DNA of 64,000 nt from a virus. Taxonomy: Duplodnaviria > Caudoviricetes. Numbering within the stretch: the stretch's first letter is position 1; the number at the start of each line of letters is the position of its first letter. Shown in pieces: positions 8,896 through 40,889 of this stretch. Location: positions 1,206 to 65,205 of the IMG/VR virus record IMGVR_UViG_3300037400_003293; one strand, 5' to 3'. The notes under the pieces were generated by a model, which saw only the letters and a program-made list of their open reading frames with translations, did not search any database and was not told where the DNA came from. Position numbers and translations under genes: made by a program.

Positions 8896-10344
8896 ATGGC
8901 TTTTATAAACGTCAAATTTACCCGGAAGGAAAATTATGAAGAGTTCAATTGCGCTCCAGGTACGGTAATGAAAGTTCCTTTTGAAGACTATGTCGCCGCC
9001 GTTGTCGCTTCTGAGATCGGAAACTCTGATATTGAAGCTTGTAAAGCTCAGGCCATTGCTGCGAGAACATTTGCCGTCAATAAAGATGTTCTTGAAGGAA
9101 AAGAAATTACAGATAGCAGTGCCAAAGATCAGGCTTTCCGAATTAGTCGTCTGGATGATTATTTATATCCAAATGCGATGAAAGCTGCTGAGTTGACGGA
9201 AGGCCAAATTCTTACCTACAACAGTAAACCGATCGCGGCAGTATATTCTGCTTGTAACGGAGGGCACACTGTCTCGGCGAAAGAGCGCTGGGGCAGTGAG
9301 CGAAAATACTTGCCAGCTCAAGTTGATCCATGGGATAACAGCGCCAAGCGAACAGGTCATGGCGTCGGCATGAGTCAAAGAGGTGCTAAAGCCATGGCTA
9401 AAGCGGGGAAGACCTATGAGGAAATCCTCGCTTTTTATTATCCCGGAACGCAAATTACCGATCTCTGGGCTTTGGAAAAGGAAGAAGGTGAGGGCTTGGT
9501 CAATGCAAAAGATTTCATTGATAAAGTAAAAATTGCTTTAACGGAGCAGTGGGGTTACATCTACGGCACCTGGTATACTTTTTGGACCAAGGAAGACCAA
9601 GCCAGACTCAACAAAACGACAGACAGCAACCGTGCCAAGTCCCGTCAATACGGATCACGGTGGATTGGGCATGTCGTGACCGATTGTTCCGGCCTGGTTT
9701 ATTGGGCCATGAAGCAATTTGGCGTAGAGGTCGCTCATCATGCGACATACCTTTATACAGACTATTGTCGAAACAAAGGCAAACTTATATATGGTGAGCC
9801 TACTGACGGGCACAAGTTGCTGCCAGGGTCTCTCGTCTTCAAGAAAGGAAGCAAAGACAAAATTCATCACGTTGGAATTTACATCGGAAATGACCAAGTG
9901 ATTGAAGCGAAAGGTGCCCAGTATGGAGTCATCGAGTCTTACGTGTTTGATGGCTGGGATTACTGGGGTGAACTGAAAGCCGTCGATTATAGCAACCGTC
10001 AAGAAAAGGAGGAAACCACTATGGATGCCGCAAAAGTTTACAATACCAAAACTGATTCCGTGAATATGCGAAAGAATCCGAGAAAGAATGCCGGTATTCT
10101 TTGCAAAATCCCTGATGATTCCATTGTTTCTGTCATTGATAGATCTGTTCCTGGCTGGTATCAGGTAGAATATGCTGGACGAGTTGGTTGGGTAATGTCC
10201 GATTACCTCATGGATGTCAAACCGGAACCTGTTCAGGAAGAAATGGATCTTACTACACTTGTGCAGCTGATGCGCGCTTCTCTGGAAGGCCTGTCCGAAG
10301 AGCTGACAAAGCTCGAGGAGATTGTCAATAAGACAGTTGGCTGA
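8896..10344 (+). CDS. Multidomain endolysin: SpoIID/LytB-like + NlpC/P60 + SH3b
   Basis: SpoIID-like EDYVAAVVASEI..EACKAQAIAART and GHGVGMSQRGAKAMA; NlpC/P60 DCSGLV...HHVGIYIG; SH3b VNMRKNP...WYQVEYAGRVGWVMSDYL. Confidence 0.85.
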   Translation: MAFINVKFTRKENYEEFNCAPGTVMKVPFEDYVAAVVASEIGNSDIEACKAQAIAARTFAVNKDVLEGKEITDSSAKDQAFRISRLDDYLYPNAMKAAELTEGQILTYNSKPIAAVYSACNGGHTVSAKERWGSERKYLPAQVDPWDNSAKRTGHGVGMSQRGAKAMAKAGKTYEEILAFYYPGTQITDLWALEKEEGEGLVNAKDFIDKVKIALTEQWGYIYGTWYTFWTKEDQARLNKTTDSNRAKSRQYGSRWIGHVVTDCSGLVYWAMKQFGVEVAHHATYLYTDYCRNKGKLIYGEPTDGHKLLPGSLVFKKGSKDKIHHVGIYIGNDQVIEAKGAQYGVIESYVFDGWDYWGELKAVDYSNRQEKEETTMDAAKVYNTKTDSVNMRKNPRKNAGILCKIPDDSIVSVIDRSVPGWYQVEYAGRVGWVMSDYLMDVKPEPVQEEMDLTTLVQLMRASLEGLSEELTKLEEIVNKTVG

Positions 10345-13239: not shown

Positions 13240-13302
13240 ACACGATTTTTACAAATGCTGCTATGGAAGCCTTTAACACTTTTGGAAAGGAGAGATAGCA
13301 GT

Positions 13303-13383
13303 ATGTTTGGAGTAGCTGGTGTGCTGCTGATTGCAGCTGGCGTATTTCTGGTTGCCAAGTGGATCAAAGACGGAAATGACTGA
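13303..13383 (+). CDS. 26-aa membrane peptide (not in the ORF track)
   Basis: Motif at 13241 + RBS GAAAGGAG + MFGVAGVLLIAAGVFLVAKWIKDGND* + terminator. Confidence 0.65.
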   Translation: MFGVAGVLLIAAGVFLVAKWIKDGND

Positions 13384-14009: not shown

Positions 14010-14255
14010 ATGTCTGAATTGTTGGTTGGAATCTTGATCGGGCTTGGAGCGGGGGCTGTGGTTACCGCAATCACGGTGTCTCTGCTCATTGATAAATGGT
14101 ATGTGGGAAACCTCAATCTGGATGCCTCGATTCCGGAGGAGCCCTACTACTTTATGGAAGTGGGCCGGGGTATGACACATAAGCTCAGCAAAAACAAGCA
14201 TGTGCTGCTGAACGTCAGGAAGTCCAACTATGAAGACCGGAAGGAAACGAAATAA
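14010..14255 (+). CDS. Small N-terminal TM protein
   Basis: LLVGILIGLGAGAVVTAITV; RBS GGAAGGAG. Confidence 0.7.
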   Translation: MSELLVGILIGLGAGAVVTAITVSLLIDKWYVGNLNLDASIPEEPYYFMEVGRGMTHKLSKNKHVLLNVRKSNYEDRKETK

Positions 14256-15408: not shown

Positions 15409-15771
15409 ATGCGTTATCACTATGATCGGCCGAAGCATTACAGCAGCCATTACGGAGAGGAATATGTCTGCGATCATCCGGTATACAGTAAGTGTACTCT
15501 GTTCCGTGTGTGGGATCGAGGTCTGGCGGTCATCCAGCAGCGATACGATCCGGGGACAAAGAGAACCTATTGGGGCCCGATCGATCCTTGGCTGACAGAC
15601 CCAATCTACCTGAATCCGGCCTTCCTTGCCTATTTTAAAAAGAGGTCGGACGAGGCAGATGCAACCGGCTGTTATCCAACTGTAACAGTTCGGCAGATCA
15701 TGTGGGCGCTCAAGATGAAACCCATTCCAAAAGAGGTATGGGAGACCGTCTTTGATCGAGCGGAGATATGA
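15409..15771 (+). CDS. Conserved hypothetical phage protein
   Basis: 120-aa ORF coupled to the upstream gene. Confidence 0.65.
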   Translation: MRYHYDRPKHYSSHYGEEYVCDHPVYSKCTLFRVWDRGLAVIQQRYDPGTKRTYWGPIDPWLTDPIYLNPAFLAYFKKRSDEADATGCYPTVTVRQIMWALKMKPIPKEVWETVFDRAEI

Positions 15772-15813
15772 CACGAAATTTTCAAGCCTTCTTATGAAAG
15801 GAGGTTCGATAAT

Positions 15814-15954
15814 ATGGTTTCTATCGGACAATTAGTAGGTTTGTTAGGTTTCGCATTTATTTGTTGGATTTCCGGCTATATCTGTGGAGAAGGACATGCA
15901 TTGATTGACGAGGAGAAAAAGAAAGAAACGGCCTCTATTGCAGAGAAGGAGTGA
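15814..15954 (+). CDS. 46-aa membrane peptide (cassette 1)
   Basis: MVSIGQLVGLLGFAFICWISGYICGEGHALIDEEKKKETASIAEKE*; own motif, RBS and terminator. Confidence 0.7.
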   Translation: MVSIGQLVGLLGFAFICWISGYICGEGHALIDEEKKKETASIAEKE

Positions 15955-16019
15955 GCGCAAAGCCCACTCTTTTTTTTCGCGAAATATACAAGCCTTCCTA
16001 TGAAAGGAAGGTGCTGAAC

Positions 16020-16121
16020 ATGACGCAGGTAGCAGTATTATTCTTACTCGGATGTATGTTAGGTGAGTATCTGGATAAAAGGCAGGAGCGTAAATCAGCT
16101 TCGAAGGAGTATAAGGGGTGA
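16020..16121 (+). CDS. 33-aa membrane peptide (cassette 2)
   Basis: MTQVAVLFLLGCMLGEYLDKRQERKSASKEYKG*; own motif, RBS and terminator. Confidence 0.7.
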   Translation: MTQVAVLFLLGCMLGEYLDKRQERKSASKEYKG

Positions 16122-16184
16122 GCGCAAAGCCTCTCCCTTTTTCACGAAATAAACAGGCTTTCTTATGAAAGGAAGGTGATTAAT

Positions 16185-16289
16185 ATGATCTTTACTCTGA
16201 CATGTATGTTTCTTCTTGGTTGGTTTATTGGCAATTACCAAGGGCACAAAGCAGAGAAAGCAAAGAACAATCCTGATCAAAAGGGGTGA
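16185..16289 (+). CDS. 34-aa membrane peptide (cassette 3)
   Basis: MIFTLTCMFLLGWFIGNYQGHKAEKAKNNPDQKG*; own motif, RBS and terminator. Confidence 0.7.
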   Translation: MIFTLTCMFLLGWFIGNYQGHKAEKAKNNPDQKG

Positions 16290-16378
16290 GCGCAATGCTC
16301 GCTCCTTTTTTTTTTTCACGAAATAAACAGGCCTTCTTATGGAACGGACGAGATCCGTATCGAAAAGGAGGATGGTTT

Positions 16379-16531
16379 ATGGAAATTTTGTTTGTATTGA
16401 TCTTGCTTGGATTAGCGACTGGATGTATTGGACTCGTGATCGCGGCAAGAGCATTCGACTGGTTTTTGGATAAACTGATCCAGTTGATTCGTGAACGGAA
16501 GAGCTCGTGTGAGTGGAGGAATGGCCTGTAA
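16379..16531 (+). CDS. 50-aa membrane peptide (cassette 4)
   Basis: RBS AAAAGGAGG; MEILFVLILLGLATGCIGLVIAARAFDWFLDK... Confidence 0.7.
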   Translation: MEILFVLILLGLATGCIGLVIAARAFDWFLDKLIQLIRERKSSCEWRNGL

Positions 16532-16582
16532 CAAGGGCCATTCTTCTTTTTCACGAATTTTACAATGGGTGTTATGGAAGAG

Positions 16583-16906
16583 ATGTAAGTCTGAGCATTA
16601 GGTAATGCACTTAGATGAAGATGGATGTGGATCGAAACCACACGGACTTACATTACAGTTGCGGATAACAAGAAATTAGTAGGTGACGAAAGTTTCTAAG
16701 AAGCGAGGCTAAGAGAGAGGTAGACTCCTGATCGACCAACATAAAATATCGGCGGTTATCTGAGGGCGCTGCAGCGTCAATGACTGTATAAGAACTAAAA
16801 GTGGCGTGCCACCAAAGCGTGGTCCGATTTACGAAGAGGATTTCGATCATATGCAGTGATCAGAAATTGGTATGGCGAGTAACGACGTGAGTCTTGCAAG
16901 TTCTTA
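16583..16906 (+). ncRNA. Large structured ncRNA with a tRNA-like 5' domain
   Basis: Multiple nested stems found by eye (see findings); bracketed by the repeated motif and a poly-T tract; no RBS-supported ORF. Confidence 0.7.
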
Positions 16907-16940
16907 TTTTTTTTTCACGAATTTTACAAGTGATATTATG

Positions 16941-17023
16941 GAGAAGGAAGAACTGTGACACGCATGTAGTCGATTAGGTTCGACCGGTCTATACGGAGTG
17001 CGTTGCTCCCGTATAGCCTTCTC
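16941..17023 (+). ncRNA. Putative ~85-nt structured RNA (cassette payload)
   Basis: GAGAAGG/CCTTCTC closing stem, GTCGA-TTAGGT-TCGAC and CTATACGGAG/CTCCCGTATAG hairpins, then a T tract. Confidence 0.55.
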
Positions 17024-17052
17024 TTTTTATTTTTCGAAAGGAGCACAAACTT

Positions 17053-17544
17053 ATGGCTGAACCCAATGAACGAAGGATCAAAATTGAAGAGGAGGACATG
17101 GAGCTTTGGATTGATGCACTTGATGACTCTGTCCAAACGGGCGAATCTACAGTCCGGGCAATAAACGTCTGTATGCGTTATTTAACACATTCCGGTGTAC
17201 TTGAACGGATGACATTCATTCAGGCGCTTTTGGACGATGATATATTCAAAGATATTCTCATGTCCAGAAACTGCGGAGAAAAGACATCTAATCATTTGAA
17301 GAGAGCAAGGCTGCTGCTGAAGGAGAGGTGCAAAGAGATGGGTACGGTTAAGGTCCCTGATATTCTGCCATTAGCAAAGGCCGATCCAAAATTGTTTAAA
17401 CAGTTCTCGACTCTCTATAAGTTTTTTGGATGGGATGTCGGTGGTGACAGGCTTCATTATGCTTCAGCTCGTGCGAGCCAGTACAGAAAGAGGGCAGAAG
17501 AGCATGTGGGAGAACGGGATTCTCTTCTGACAGATCAAAAATAG
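17053..17544 (+). CDS. Protein with an RNAP alpha-CTD-like helix-hairpin-helix segment
   Basis: TVRAINVCMR...DILMSRNCGEKT resembles alpha-CTD SVRxxNCLKR...DLMKxRNLGxKS; RBS GAAAGGAG. Confidence 0.5.
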   Translation: MAEPNERRIKIEEEDMELWIDALDDSVQTGESTVRAINVCMRYLTHSGVLERMTFIQALLDDDIFKDILMSRNCGEKTSNHLKRARLLLKERCKEMGTVKVPDILPLAKADPKLFKQFSTLYKFFGWDVGGDRLHYASARASQYRKRAEEHVGERDSLLTDQK

Positions 17545-19282: not shown

Positions 19283-19634
19283 TCAAATTGCAATGATATT
19301 TGGTTACTTCATGCTTGTTATGATGGCCCTGTTCTGTCTGTATGTGCTGTATATCACCATCCGTGATCATTTTGCGGAAAAGAAGGCTACAAATAAGAAA
19401 TATCTCGAACATCTGAGGGAAGAAATTGACAATAATGAAAAACGTATCGGACATCTGATTTGCACGACAGCCGAACTTGACGAACGACTTACTCTCCTTG
19501 AGGAAAGCACGAAAAAAACAGAGTCTGCTATGGAAGAACCGAAAGGAGGTATCTGCCATGAAGAAGTTTCTGGGAAACCTGAAGGACCAGATCGTGAGCA
19601 AGTGCGAGAACGCGGACAAGACGAAGGTGCTTAA
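19275..19634 (+). CDS. TM + coiled-coil protein
   Basis: RBS AAGGAGG; IAMIFGYFMLVMMALFCLYVLYI. Confidence 0.65.
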   Translation: MLNQIAMIFGYFMLVMMALFCLYVLYITIRDHFAEKKATNKKYLEHLREEIDNNEKRIGHLICTTAELDERLTLLEESTKKTESAMEEPKGGICHEEVSGKPEGPDREQVRERGQDEGA

Positions 19635-19788
19635 ATGGAGTTGTGTGATTGGTGCCGCAATCTTAGGATTGTTTGGCAACATCCTGGACACCAAGATTAA
19701 GGACCGCGACTATGACGCGTCTGTCAAAGCAGCGATCGCCGAAAAGGTAGCCAAAATCAACATGGGCGATCAGAGTGAAAACGGTTGA
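19558..19788 (+). CDS. Small TM protein
   Basis: RBS GAAAGGAGGT; WSCVIGAAILGLFGNIL. Confidence 0.65.
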   Translation: MKKFLGNLKDQIVSKCENADKTKVLKWSCVIGAAILGLFGNILDTKIKDRDYDASVKAAIAEKVAKINMGDQSENG

Positions 19789-19848
19789 ACCGGAGGGCAA
19801 AGGCATAGCAAATCGCTGTGCCTTTTCTCTTTTGCGAAAGGAGGGAGC

Positions 19849-36860: not shown

Positions 36861-37040
36861 TCACAAATTTTGATATTTTTCACCAAATTCTGCCTGTGCT
36901 TTTGCACGGGCTTTTCTGTTTCGACCAAAACCGGCTAACGGGCTGAAAAAAACGAAATTTACAAGCCCTATTATGAAGAGAGAGTGACTCATGCACTTTC
37001 TCTTCTTTTGGTCGATTTTTGATAAAGGAGGATGCACTGC

Positions 37041-37916: not shown

Positions 37917-40889
37917 ATGGATAATTTACTGTTGGAAATGCTGTCTCTCTATTCTGGCGATCCTCTGGATCTGTACTTGATGAATGACGAGACACTGGAA
38001 CACGCTTATGAAGCGCAGGGCATCGGTGCCACAGGTGCTGGCGGAAGAACAAGAGAAGCCAGCTCTCAGGGTATTGGATCGGGAAGATACAGGAAAGGCA
38101 CCGGCGACAATCCTTATCAGCATGGATTCAGCAACTTCCTGGATCGTGTGGACTATTATAAACGCTCTGGTGTGACCAATCAGAAAGATTTGGCCAAGCT
38201 GTGTGGATGTGAAAATACGACTGATTTTCGTATTGCTTACTCTCAGGCTTTGCATGAGTGGAAGGTCAACCGTGCTGCCACTGCGCAGGCAATGCTGGAC
38301 AGCGGTAAGTACAAGACCAAGAAAGCAGTTGCTGAAGCGCTTGGCATTCGGGATACTACTCTCACTTCCTGGCTGAATCCCAAGTCTTTGGAGCGAGTCA
38401 ACCAGGCGCAGAATGTGGCGGATTTCCTGGAGAACCAGCTCAAAGAAAAGAAAATGATAGATGTTGGTGTCGGTGTAGAGAGGGAACTCAACTGCAGCCG
38501 CACCAAACTGGCTGAAGCCTTGGCCATCCTTGAGCAAAAAGGATACAACGTGTATGGCGGCCGTGTGCCGCAGGCAACGAATCCTGGAAAGAAGACAACG
38601 CTTAGCGTGCTGGCAGATACTGATCAGAAATGGAGTGATGTTTATAATCATCCCGAATTGATACAATCTGTGGCAGACTATATTGTCCGTCAAGATGGCG
38701 AAGGCAATGACGTTGTTCAGAAGAAATGGCAATATCCCGAGTCTTTGGATAGCTCCAGACTGATGATCCGTTATCGTGACGATAAAGCGTACGATGGCCA
38801 CACCGGTTGGGAGAAGGACGGAACCATTGAACTGCGCCGAAATGTGCCTGATTTGGATCTGCAAGGCAGCCACTATGCTCAGGTCCGCATCATGGTAGAT
38901 GGAAATAAGTACCTTAAAGGTATGGCGCTTTATTCTGACCATATGCCAGATGGTGTTGATGTGGTATTTAATACCAATAAGACACCCGGCGAAGATGTTC
39001 TAAAGAACATTAAGAAAGATCCCGATAATCCTTTTGGTGCATTGCTTCGCAATGAAGGCGGTCAGTATACTTATGAAGATAAAGATGGCAACACCAAGCT
39101 TGGGTTGATCAACAAGACCAGGCAGGAAGGCGACTGGGAAGATTGGAAGGATTCTCTTCCTTCTCAGTTTTTGGCCAAACAGCCTATTGCTCTCATTGAT
39201 AAACAGCTGAATAAGACGATTGAAGAGAAACAGGCTGAGTTCGATGAGATTATGGCGCTGACCAACCCGACAGTAAAGAAGTCGTTGTTGGCTGATTTTG
39301 CTGAAGCCTGTGATTACCAATCTGTTCATATGCAAGCAGCCGCTTTACCTAGGCAGAAGTATCAGGTATTATTGCCTGTTCCTACCTTGAATGATAATGA
39401 GGTTTATGCTCCTTATTACAAGAACGGCGAAACAATTGCTTGTATCCGATTCCCAAACCAAGGATTGTTTGAGATTGCCATTTGCAAGGTAAATAATAAC
39501 AATCCGCAGGGTGTGGAAATGATCGGCAATTCAATGGACGCTATCGGATTGAACAAAGCTAACGCAGATCGTCTGTCCGGTGCTGATAATGATGGCGATA
39601 CTGTTCTTTGCGTCCCCTGCAATGATCCCAAATACAGCGACACAAAGATTATGAACCAGCCGCTGTTGGAAGGATTGCGTGATTTTGATCCCAAAGTCCA
39701 GTACAGGTGTGATCACATTGAGACACGTACAGAGCGGGTTAAGAAAAAAGATAAATTTGGTAATGTCCTTAAAGACGAAGACGGAAATCCCGTTTATGAG
39801 GAAAAAGAAGTAGAGCATTATTTCCGAAACGGGAAAGAGTTCAAGCCAATGACTCGTACTCAGATGGAAATGGGGATCGTTAGCAATTTGATGATGGATG
39901 CTACGCTTCGTGGCGCGTCTGATGATGATAAAGCTGCGATTGCCCGCCATTGTCAGGTCGTTATCGACGCAGAAAAGCACCATCTGGACTGGCAGCAGAG
40001 TGCCATTGATAATCATATTAAGGAGCTCAAAAAGAAATACCAGGAACGGATTGATGATGAGGACGGATCTTATCATTATGGCGCTTCCACTTTGATAACG
40101 AGAGCCAAATCGCCTACACAGATTGTCAAACCTACAGGTGCTCCTCATATTGACCCTGAAACCGGCAAATTATATTACACAGATAAACAAAAGAAACCGC
40201 AAACTTATTATGATAAAAAGACTGGCAAGACCAAGGTCCGCATGGAAGATGTGGCACTGCTGGAGACAAAAGATAGCGCCTTTGATCTGGTGTCTGATAT
40301 GCACAATGCCAAGGAGCTGGCATATGCCAAGTTCTCTGATACGCTGCGTGATATGGCCAACCAAGCTCGAAAGGTTATTGCCAATACCGGAGACATCCAG
40401 TTTAATAAGCAGGCGGAAGCCAAATACCATGAAGAAGCGGAGCACTTATTGAGCGAATTGATGATTTCTGAAATGAATGCTCCACGTGAGCGTATGGCCC
40501 AGCTGTATGCCCGCGGTATAACCCTGGCCAAGCTGCGGGACAATCCCGATATGACCAAAAAAGAGCAGAGAAAGGCAAGTCAATCTGCCTTGGCGGAAGG
40601 AAGAGTTCGTTTTGGTGCACATCGACATAAAATCGATATTTCTCCAAGAGAATGGGAAGCGATTCAGGCCGGTGCGATCAATAAAACAAAACTGACCGCC
40701 ATCCTCAAATATGCAGACTCCGATAAAGTGCGCAATTATGCCACACCGAAGGCTTCTACCAATTTGACGCCTGGTCAGGTGAACCGTATTAAGAGTGCAT
40801 TGGCTAGCGGCGTTTCTCCTTCTTCTTTGGCCGAGCAATATCATGTGTCTGTGTCTGCTATTAACGCCTATAGAAAGAAGAAATCGTAA
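37917..40889 (+). CDS. Single-subunit two-barrel (DPBB) RNA polymerase-like protein with HTH domains
   Basis: Catalytic-like LSGADNDGDT preceded by RFP; HTH segments KTKKAVAEALGIRDTTLTSWL and GVSPSSLAEQYHVSVSAI. Confidence 0.7.
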   Translation: MDNLLLEMLSLYSGDPLDLYLMNDETLEHAYEAQGIGATGAGGRTREASSQGIGSGRYRKGTGDNPYQHGFSNFLDRVDYYKRSGVTNQKDLAKLCGCENTTDFRIAYSQALHEWKVNRAATAQAMLDSGKYKTKKAVAEALGIRDTTLTSWLNPKSLERVNQAQNVADFLENQLKEKKMIDVGVGVERELNCSRTKLAEALAILEQKGYNVYGGRVPQATNPGKKTTLSVLADTDQKWSDVYNHPELIQSVADYIVRQDGEGNDVVQKKWQYPESLDSSRLMIRYRDDKAYDGHTGWEKDGTIELRRNVPDLDLQGSHYAQVRIMVDGNKYLKGMALYSDHMPDGVDVVFNTNKTPGEDVLKNIKKDPDNPFGALLRNEGGQYTYEDKDGNTKLGLINKTRQEGDWEDWKDSLPSQFLAKQPIALIDKQLNKTIEEKQAEFDEIMALTNPTVKKSLLADFAEACDYQSVHMQAAALPRQKYQVLLPVPTLNDNEVYAPYYKNGETIACIRFPNQGLFEIAICKVNNNNPQGVEMIGNSMDAIGLNKANADRLSGADNDGDTVLCVPCNDPKYSDTKIMNQPLLEGLRDFDPKVQYRCDHIETRTERVKKKDKFGNVLKDEDGNPVYEEKEVEHYFRNGKEFKPMTRTQMEMGIVSNLMMDATLRGASDDDKAAIARHCQVVIDAEKHHLDWQQSAIDNHIKELKKKYQERIDDEDGSYHYGASTLITRAKSPTQIVKPTGAPHIDPETGKLYYTDKQKKPQTYYDKKTGKTKVRMEDVALLETKDSAFDLVSDMHNAKELAYAKFSDTLRDMANQARKVIANTGDIQFNKQAEAKYHEEAEHLLSELMISEMNAPRERMAQLYARGITLAKLRDNPDMTKKEQRKASQSALAEGRVRFGAHRHKIDISPREWEAIQAGAINKTKLTAILKYADSDKVRNYATPKASTNLTPGQVNRIKSALASGVSPSSLAEQYHVSVSAINAYRKKKS

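Follow-up and report, generated by a model that had tools for sequence, protein, structure and literature searches.

A tandem array of four putative micro-transcription units encoding candidate membrane peptides in a relative of Faecalibacterium phage FP_oengus

The DNA analyzed here, hereafter called the window, comprises 64 kb of a 65,205-bp IMG/VR virus record (IMGVR_UViG_3300037400_003293). Behind a conserved gene, which we refer to as the anchor gene, the window carries four tandem units at positions 15772-16551. Each unit is composed, in this order, of a promoter-like motif (CACGAAATWWACA-N8-TATGRA), a Shine-Dalgarno (SD) sequence, an open reading frame (ORF) of 33-50 codons and a terminator formed by a hairpin with a T-run, which holds the stop codon of the ORF. 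An original prediction, made from the letters alone, had described an array of four single-gene cassettes whose ORFs are led by a ribosome binding site (RBS), and this overall observation was confirmed. The prediction had further proposed repeats of ~60 nt at a period of 167-168 nt. The repeats are real: a repeat search returned three 58-nt copies spaced by 167 and 168 nt with 62-71% identity (family D3), four copies of 51 nt with 69-84% identity (D2) and five copies of 48 nt (D1). The period, however, is confined to the terminator part, whereas the unit lengths measured from motif to motif are 206, 165, 174 and 235 nt.

The sequence AGGAGG or GGAAGGTG is located 6-9 nt ahead of the ATG in all four units. 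According to the prediction the stop codons lie in the terminator stem. This applies to units 1-3, where the stop codon is part of the 5' arm and is placed inside the decamer GTGAGCGCAA, whereas in unit 4 it is found in the terminator loop. Three of the four hairpins are well beyond shuffled controls (Table 1). In a four-unit alignment the similarity resides in the regulatory ends, and the coding bodies have diverged. The GC content of the array (~0.40-0.43) is slightly below that of its flanks (0.47-0.51).

Table 1 Features of the array and of its immediate surroundings, with positions in the window.
Feature	Position	Strand	Remarks
Anchor gene, 120 aa, phrog_17256	15409-15771	+	E 7.7e-57; array begins directly after the anchor stop codon
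Unit 1 promoter-like motif	15772-15798	+	CACGAAATTTTCA, spacer AGCCTTCT, TATGAA; inferred start at the G of TATG, 15796
Peptide 1 ORF, 46 aa	15814-15954	+	SD AGGAGG at 15799-15804; apolar residues 7-25; tail mixed, net acidic
Terminator 1, hairpin and T-run	15942-15977	+	TGA stop at 15952-15954; -16 kcal/mol, z = -3.3
Unit 2 promoter-like motif	15978-16004	+	inferred start 16002
Peptide 2 ORF, 33 aa, paralogue of peptide 3	16020-16121	+	
Terminator 2	16113-16142	+	TGA stop at 16119-16121; -12.3 kcal/mol, z = -1.15
Unit 3 promoter-like motif	16143-16169	+	inferred start 16167
Peptide 3 ORF, 34 aa, paralogue of peptide 2	16185-16289	+	
Terminator 3	16279-16316	+	TGA stop at 16287-16289; -19.4 kcal/mol, z = -5.0
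Unit 4 promoter-like motif	16317-16343	+	inferred start 16341
Unit 4 leader, 35 nt, extra hairpin	16344-16378	+	SD at 16366-16371
Peptide 4 ORF, 50 aa	16379-16531	+	21-residue apolar helix, then strongly amphipathic helix (hydrophobic moment 0.75)
Terminator 4, sequence unlike terminators 1-3	16515-16551	+	TAA stop at 16529-16531 in the loop; -21 kcal/mol, z = -4.75
Two more motif-led RNA-like units, no RBS-led ORF	16552-17052	+	motifs at 16552 and 16916

The four predicted peptides follow a common design of an apolar helix with a GxxxG motif and a charged tail. GxxxG had been anticipated for all of them, with merely a GCIG-like version in the fourth, yet peptide 4 holds a true GxxxG (GLATG). 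The proposed Lys-rich tails apply to peptides 1-3, of which peptide 1 is net acidic, whereas the tail of peptide 4 is Arg-rich. A Leu-Leu-Gly (LLG) sequence is found at residues 9-12 in all four peptides, in comparison to two of 192 unrelated small hydrophobic peptides from relatives that served as a null set. The combination LLGxxxG occurs in three array peptides and in one of the 192 null peptides. Such an architecture would fit peptides resembling type I toxins just as well as small membrane modulators or exclusion proteins.

Two features of the regulatory parts point toward a descent of the units from one another. The N8 spacer of the motif is 0.79 identical inside the array, compared with 0.34 to other motif copies and 0.45 among motif copies overall, and the decamer GTGAGCGCAA is confined to terminators 1-3. 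We therefore interpret the four units as tandem duplicates, and together with the LLG sequence in all four peptides these data uphold the common descent that had been suggested. The further claim that the peptides are paralogues holds for peptides 2 and 3, which align with a Smith-Waterman score of 48 against a null maximum of 33-44 and match each other by phmmer at E ~0.01 among 1,885 sequences. As judged by sequence, only these two are provable paralogues, and for peptides 1 and 4 the claim is not provable in this way. Six of the nine residues common to peptides 2 and 3 (F, L, L, G, G, Y) are specified by different codons in the two ORFs, and the two coding bodies share 39% DNA identity. This argues for selection on the amino-acid sequence and hence for translation of peptides 2 and 3.

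Outside of the window, peptide 4 occurs in six variants of 96-100% identity on ~15 contigs, with conservative changes only. The exact protein was found on five contigs for the anchor, on four contigs for peptide 4 and solely on its own contig for peptide 1. For a turnover of units in the window's own lineage, these counts offer at most indirect evidence. Peptides 2 and 3 were never called by gene callers and are present in no protein collection searched; likewise, a search of 5.8 billion proteins returned nothing for peptides 2 and 3 and only their own clusters for peptides 1 and 4. DNA patterns derived from the terminator and from peptide 4 had no match in the viral or genome contig collections.

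The phage is a temperate, FP_oengus-like phage of Clostridia. The anchor product shares 56% identity with gp09 of Faecalibacterium phage FP_oengus. Relatives of the anchor gene number in the hundreds in collections of viruses, metagenomes and genomes, and many of them belong to prophages of Clostridia. Hosts of FP_oengus-like phages are gut Clostridia including Faecalibacterium, Lachnospiraceae, Oscillospiraceae and Ruminococcus. The relatives retrieved for comparison are at most 68% identical in the anchor gene, and megablast and blastn searches of the phage collection returned no close kin of the window. The window codes for a large terminase, a prohead protease, a D5-type primase-helicase and a 990-aa protein (ORF 37917-40889), which matches phrog_4291, the YonO/QDE-1-like family of single-chain RNA polymerases, at E 4e-281. 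This phage group and its polymerase with terminal helix-turn-helix (HTH) domains have been described (bioRxiv 10.1101/842583).

The core motif CACGAAWTWWACA, allowing at most one mismatch, occurs in 10 copies in the window, whereas shuffles predict 0.62, and all copies are on the + strand. The whole genome contains 13-14 copies, and again every one is on the + strand. Besides the array, the motif stands ahead of larger genes and of two RNA-like stretches (16552 and 16916). A view of the repeats as a dedicated cassette or recombination site is not supported; instead, they turn out to be ordinary regulatory modules made of terminator, promoter and RBS that are used genome-wide. The motif is common to the whole FP_oengus-like family. 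In 80 related viral loci, the full pattern favors the gene (+) strand by 104 to 1, and in FP_oengus itself the motif lies ahead of several small genes. A family logo built from 908 distinct contexts consists of a T-rich stretch, CGC, aaAaTTACA, a pyrimidine-rich 8-nt spacer and TTATGaAA, with zero information directly after TATGaAA.

The elements of the motif, CACGAAAT and TATG, do not resemble a sigma-70 promoter. The spacer between TTACA and TATG measures just 8 nt, and at none of the motif copies of units 1-4 did a scan with the sigma-70 consensus detect a site of this type. In 172 of the 908 contexts (19%), units 1-3 included, the SD sequence starts 0-2 nt past TATG. A reading of the element as a -10-type hexamer, with transcription starting 7 nt past it, would thus put the RNA start beyond the RBS. 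Similarly close to the motif, tRNA-like genes start 1-4 nt after TATG in the related loci L156 (4408-4482) and L148 (4556-4630) and in FP_oengus (L248, 1248-1319). These genes, designated 'tRNA-???' by ARAGORN, have abnormal anticodon loops, and the phage motif seems to drive each of them as a separate transcription unit.

The motif is most likely read by the YonO-like single-chain RNA polymerase of the phage itself, and transcription probably starts at or adjoining the G of TATG. In the founding paper on YonO, the promoter of this polymerase was still undefined (PMC5467207). A precedent for an initiator-type TATG is provided by phage phiKZ, whose non-virion RNA polymerase (nvRNAP) uses late promoters with a TATG in which the G is +1 (Yakunina et al. 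2015, PMC4666361). As in the motif described here, TATG is conserved where the RNA would be expected to start, and nothing is conserved downstream of it. The middle promoters of phiKZ carry an upstream AAanTTACc element (PMC4666361), which is similar to AAATTACA of the window motif. However, phiKZ is an unrelated phage with a multisubunit polymerase in place of a single chain, the upstream element is spaced differently, and the start site proposed here is inferred rather than mapped. One copy of the motif, at 36951, is situated upstream of the polymerase gene (37917-40889), so that expression of the polymerase would be self-reinforcing if the motif is its own promoter. In the structural-gene half past 36951, no strict copy of the motif was found.

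We compared the site 3' of the anchor gene among the relatives. A motif copy lies 12-16 nt past the end of the anchor gene and nearly always opens the site, which shows ~50 layouts among the 80 viral loci, with a content that varies by lineage. The site is a likely family-wide hot spot for gain and loss of single-gene units. Among relatives with flanks at least 94% identical, 48 distinct unit-sized insertions were detected, many of them with direct repeats of 9-52 nt at the junctions. For example, L148 and L156 differ by one unit encoding a 23-aa hydrophobic peptide, and the 32-nt repeat flanking it corresponds to the terminator and the start of the promoter. At the site itself, two units follow the anchor gene in L096 and L014, one in L100 and L103 and none in L101, with the junctions again in the repeated terminator-promoter module. 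The original prediction of a library expandable by recombination is thus supported with regard to gain and loss of units at the repeats in these related lineages, but a shuffled order of the cassettes, which it had also proposed, was not found.

The coupling of the motif to small hydrophobic peptides extends beyond the window. Among 1,362 motif copies in 239 loci, 16% are followed by a small hydrophobic RBS-led ORF, compared with 3.7% of random positions, equaling a 4.3-fold enrichment, and some of these ORFs form conserved families. Runs of three motif-led small hydrophobic ORFs are present in six of the 239 loci and runs of four in none. The three-unit runs of the relatives are not paralogues, which renders the tandem duplication in the window unusual.

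We propose, with a probability of roughly 0.7, that the array represents four autonomous micro-transcription units, duplicated in tandem, that make membrane micro-peptides from phage-type promoters. This proposal draws on the anatomy and common descent of the units, the amino-acid conservation between peptides 2 and 3, the family-wide motif and the unit-sized insertions and deletions (indels) at module repeats in relatives. Each unit would combine a composite regulatory module, i.e., an intrinsic terminator, a phage-specific promoter and an RBS, with a subsequent micro-ORF. The YonO-like polymerase would read CACGAAATWWACA-N8-TATGRA and start at or beside the G of TATG, resulting in mRNAs of ~140-210 nt that begin almost at the SD sequence. 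Translation of each mRNA would yield a peptide of 33-50 residues with an N-terminal apolar helix, including LLG at residues 9-12 and GxxxG, and a polar, charged C-terminal tail, and the peptides most likely insert in the host cytoplasmic membrane. Unequal recombination between the repeated terminator/promoter modules would have produced the tandem duplication, followed by divergence of the coding bodies. As to their role, our best guess is that the peptides modulate a membrane or envelope process of the host during lytic growth, e.g., in superinfection exclusion or host takeover.

Several points weigh against this proposal. Promoter and start site are predictions, as are termination by the phage polymerase and translation of the ORFs. 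Terminator 2 forms the weakest hairpin of the array (z = -1.15), and the apolar stretch of peptides 2 and 3, with ~12-18 residues, is short for spanning a bilayer. Peptides 1 and 4 show no significant sequence similarity to the other array peptides. No meaningful match was obtained for the peptides in Pfam, PHROGs, NCBIfam or PADLOC, the ESM Atlas scores of at most 0.84 are at chance level, and neither phmmer nor a profile of peptides 2 and 3 detected a homologue in the 239 related loci. These searches speak neither for nor against the role in exclusion or anti-defense that the original prediction had proposed.

The alternative that competes best, which we regard as possible though clearly less probable, assumes that the peptides poison the membrane in the manner of type I toxins, with the tandem Ldr, Fst and Ibs loci as counterparts. 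They would depolarize the host, and either RNA structure or an RNA of the antisense or anti-RBS type would restrain their translation. Both the peptide layout (33-50 residues, an apolar N-terminal helix, a charged tail) and the arrangement in tandem direct repeats suit this explanation. In addition, the CCTTCT-like promoter spacer can pair with the SD sequence in all four units (-7 to -16 kcal/mol), which would mask the RBS on transcripts starting upstream, i.e., on read-through RNA. With the RNA start at TATG, however, the anti-SD sequence is absent from the unit's own mRNA. Moreover, permutation of the spacers among the units gives equal pairing (0.39 vs 0.36) and the spacer is pyrimidine-rich family-wide, so that the pairing with the SD sequence may be incidental. 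A scan restricted to the sigma-70 consensus revealed no promoter-like site on the - strand of 15772-16551, the genes and motifs are all on one strand, and the peptides do not match known toxin families. We also considered the pairing of spacer and SD sequence as a designed switch. Since unit-specific covariation is lacking, the pairing is kept as an observation and not as a mechanism.

If the units did not act through their peptides, the micro-ORFs could be regulatory leaders, in which a ribosome terminating within the hairpin hinders its formation and thereby tunes read-through into the next unit and into 16552-17544. In all four units the terminator includes the stop codon, either in its 5' arm or in its loop, which is compatible with such a function, as is the serial arrangement of the units ahead of two RNA-like units and ORF 17053-17544. 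Nevertheless, read-through is dispensable because a promoter copy precedes each unit, including the downstream ones, and we consider leader function improbable. The amino-acid identity kept through synonymous changes and the shared hydrophobic-then-charged design point to the peptide as the product.

Even less probable is a scenario in which small non-coding RNAs are the products of the units and the ORFs stay untranslated. It is favored by the neighboring units at 16552 and 16916, which resemble RNA genes and are devoid of an RBS-led ORF, and by the failure of gene callers to call peptides 2 and 3. It is at odds with the strong SD sequence at the correct spacing, the ATG and the apolar-then-charged ORF in all four units, with the synonymous divergence at conserved residues and the conservative variation in peptide 4, and with the 4.3-fold enrichment of small hydrophobic ORFs behind the motif. 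A dedicated cassette system of the site-specific integron type or a CRISPR-like array, suggested solely by the superficial repeat-spacer periodicity, is highly unlikely. The repeats are 60-84% identical and resolve into terminator, promoter and RBS. Unrelated genes elsewhere in the genome also stand behind the motif, and the indel junctions in relatives fall in plain direct repeats of the modules, as for homologous or illegitimate recombination. More specifically, a CRISPR array was rejected because near-identical repeats with non-coding spacers were not found, the 'spacers' being RBS-led ORFs, and integron cassettes (promoterless, with attC and IntI) because each unit has its own promoter and its boundaries are modules used genome-wide. 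A holin reading was likewise rejected; the lysis genes, among them an endolysin with SpoIID, NlpC/P60 and SH3 domains at 8896-10344, are ~5 kb away from the array.

The array is followed by two motif-led units with RNA-like character. The first one, 16552-16915 (~360 nt), has a weak terminator hairpin (-6.8 kcal/mol) and no RBS-led ORF, and resembles an RNA gene. The second comprises a motif copy and a leader RNA before ORF 17053, of which the stretch 16923-17028 is 73-80% identical in DNA to the Arthrobacter phages Giantsbane, Phaby and Shepard. The matched stretches are unannotated or hypothetical in these phages and represent a non-coding element common to phages whose hosts belong to different phyla. 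Shared ancestry has been proposed (bioRxiv 10.1101/842583), in line with the Arthrobacter phage match. Scans of the window with Rfam and for tRNAs were both empty, and the downstream 163-aa gene has no relative in the viral contig collection.

Further motif-led or small genes were noted in the window and in FP_oengus. A fifth motif-led micro-gene at 13241-13383 encodes a 26-aa hydrophobic peptide ending in KWIKD, with a 24-aa relative behind the motif in locus L021 and a weak NCBIfam match, below the cut-off, to the DLW-39 family (E 0.007). At 14010-14255 the window codes for an 81-aa protein whose N-terminal part forms an apolar helix and whose core, 'D.SDP..PY.F.EL', is conserved and recurs in proteins of 70-82 aa in many relatives. 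The motif-led ORF at 19508-19790 (64-76 aa, one apolar helix) is the best, albeit weak (E 0.07), candidate of this genome for a family of 50-56 aa with the pattern 'KILG...DWV.EKKM.EKI', which sits behind the motif in dozens of relatives. Membership of peptide 4 in this widespread 'KILG...DW..EKK' family is not claimed; a single weak match (E 0.008) was obtained, yet the family profile gives E 0.68. In FP_oengus (L248, NC_047916), gp04 at 606-750 encodes 36 aa with an apolar helix and a Lys-rich tail directly behind a motif copy. The design of this unit equals that of units 1-3, its spacer can pair with the SD sequence, and it offers a handy experimental stand-in.

The small genes of FP_oengus-like phages and prophages, which are widespread in gut Clostridia, are largely unannotated. 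If our proposal is true, the motif constitutes a concrete candidate promoter for the class of YonO-like polymerases. It would also define a class of membrane micro-proteins enriched behind the motif family-wide, which could be tested in the cultivable pair of FP_oengus and F. prausnitzii.

Small single-pass membrane proteins of phages include Imm and Sp of T4, which are early superinfection-exclusion proteins, as well as products of the host-takeover genes of SPO1. The array peptides share with them the predicted membrane character and the location in promoter-studded early or accessory regions, but are much smaller and have no sequence relationship to them. Tandem type I toxins (Ldr/Rdl, Ibs/Sib, Fst) resemble the array in that each of their direct repeats encodes an apolar helix of ~30-50 aa with a charged tail, and in the possible masking of the RBS by an upstream complementary stretch. 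In contrast to these toxins, no antisense RNA gene was found in the array by the scan with the sigma-70 consensus, and no sequence match exists. Phage morons are autonomous promoter-gene-terminator units inserted between conserved genes, as in lambdoid phages, and are typically expressed from the prophage by the host polymerase. Like morons, the array units are self-contained, each having a predicted promoter and terminator, and they occupy a site that differs in content among relatives. Empty and filled sites were seen in other lineages of the family, among relatives with at most 68% anchor identity to the window. Different from morons, the promoter type suggests transcription by a phage polymerase, and the four tandem units appear to derive from one another.

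A closer parallel is found in the promoter-early stem-loops (PeSLs), the 'mobile regulatory cassettes' of T4-type phages (Arbiol et al. 2010, PMC2839356; Comeau et al. 2014, PMC4122927). In both systems, a repeated composite motif links the stop codon of the preceding gene, a terminating stem-loop and a promoter to the SD sequence and start of the following gene, and such motifs cluster in variable regions ahead of small ORFan genes. Close relatives of PeSL phages differ by indels that end in the motifs, and the same is seen in other lineages of the family to which the array belongs. However, the PeSL promoter matches the early sigma-70 consensus of the host, whereas the promoter-like motif of the array is of the initiator type with TATG and not sigma-70-like. 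PeSL phages are T4-type myoviruses, in which recombination between the motifs yields mini-circles, whereas the array belongs to a temperate FP_oengus-like phage of Clostridia. Also unlike PeSLs, the stem-loop of the array is always ahead of the promoter, and the cargo is a run of tandem duplicates. The array is thus best read as an analogue of the PeSL system and not as a member of it. More tentatively, and with considerably less confidence, we speculate that FP_oengus-like gut phages run a PeSL-like gene shuffling on the promoter of their own YonO-like polymerase. The array might then be a recently amplified and diversifying set of membrane micro-proteins, which would use an LLG/GxxxG helix interface on host membrane targets, e.g., in excluding rival phages or blunting membrane-based defenses, with copy number and content tuned by recombination at the modules. 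If true, the idea behind PeSLs, i.e., regulatory modules that double as recombination handles for single-gene units, would reach unrelated temperate phages with a different polymerase.

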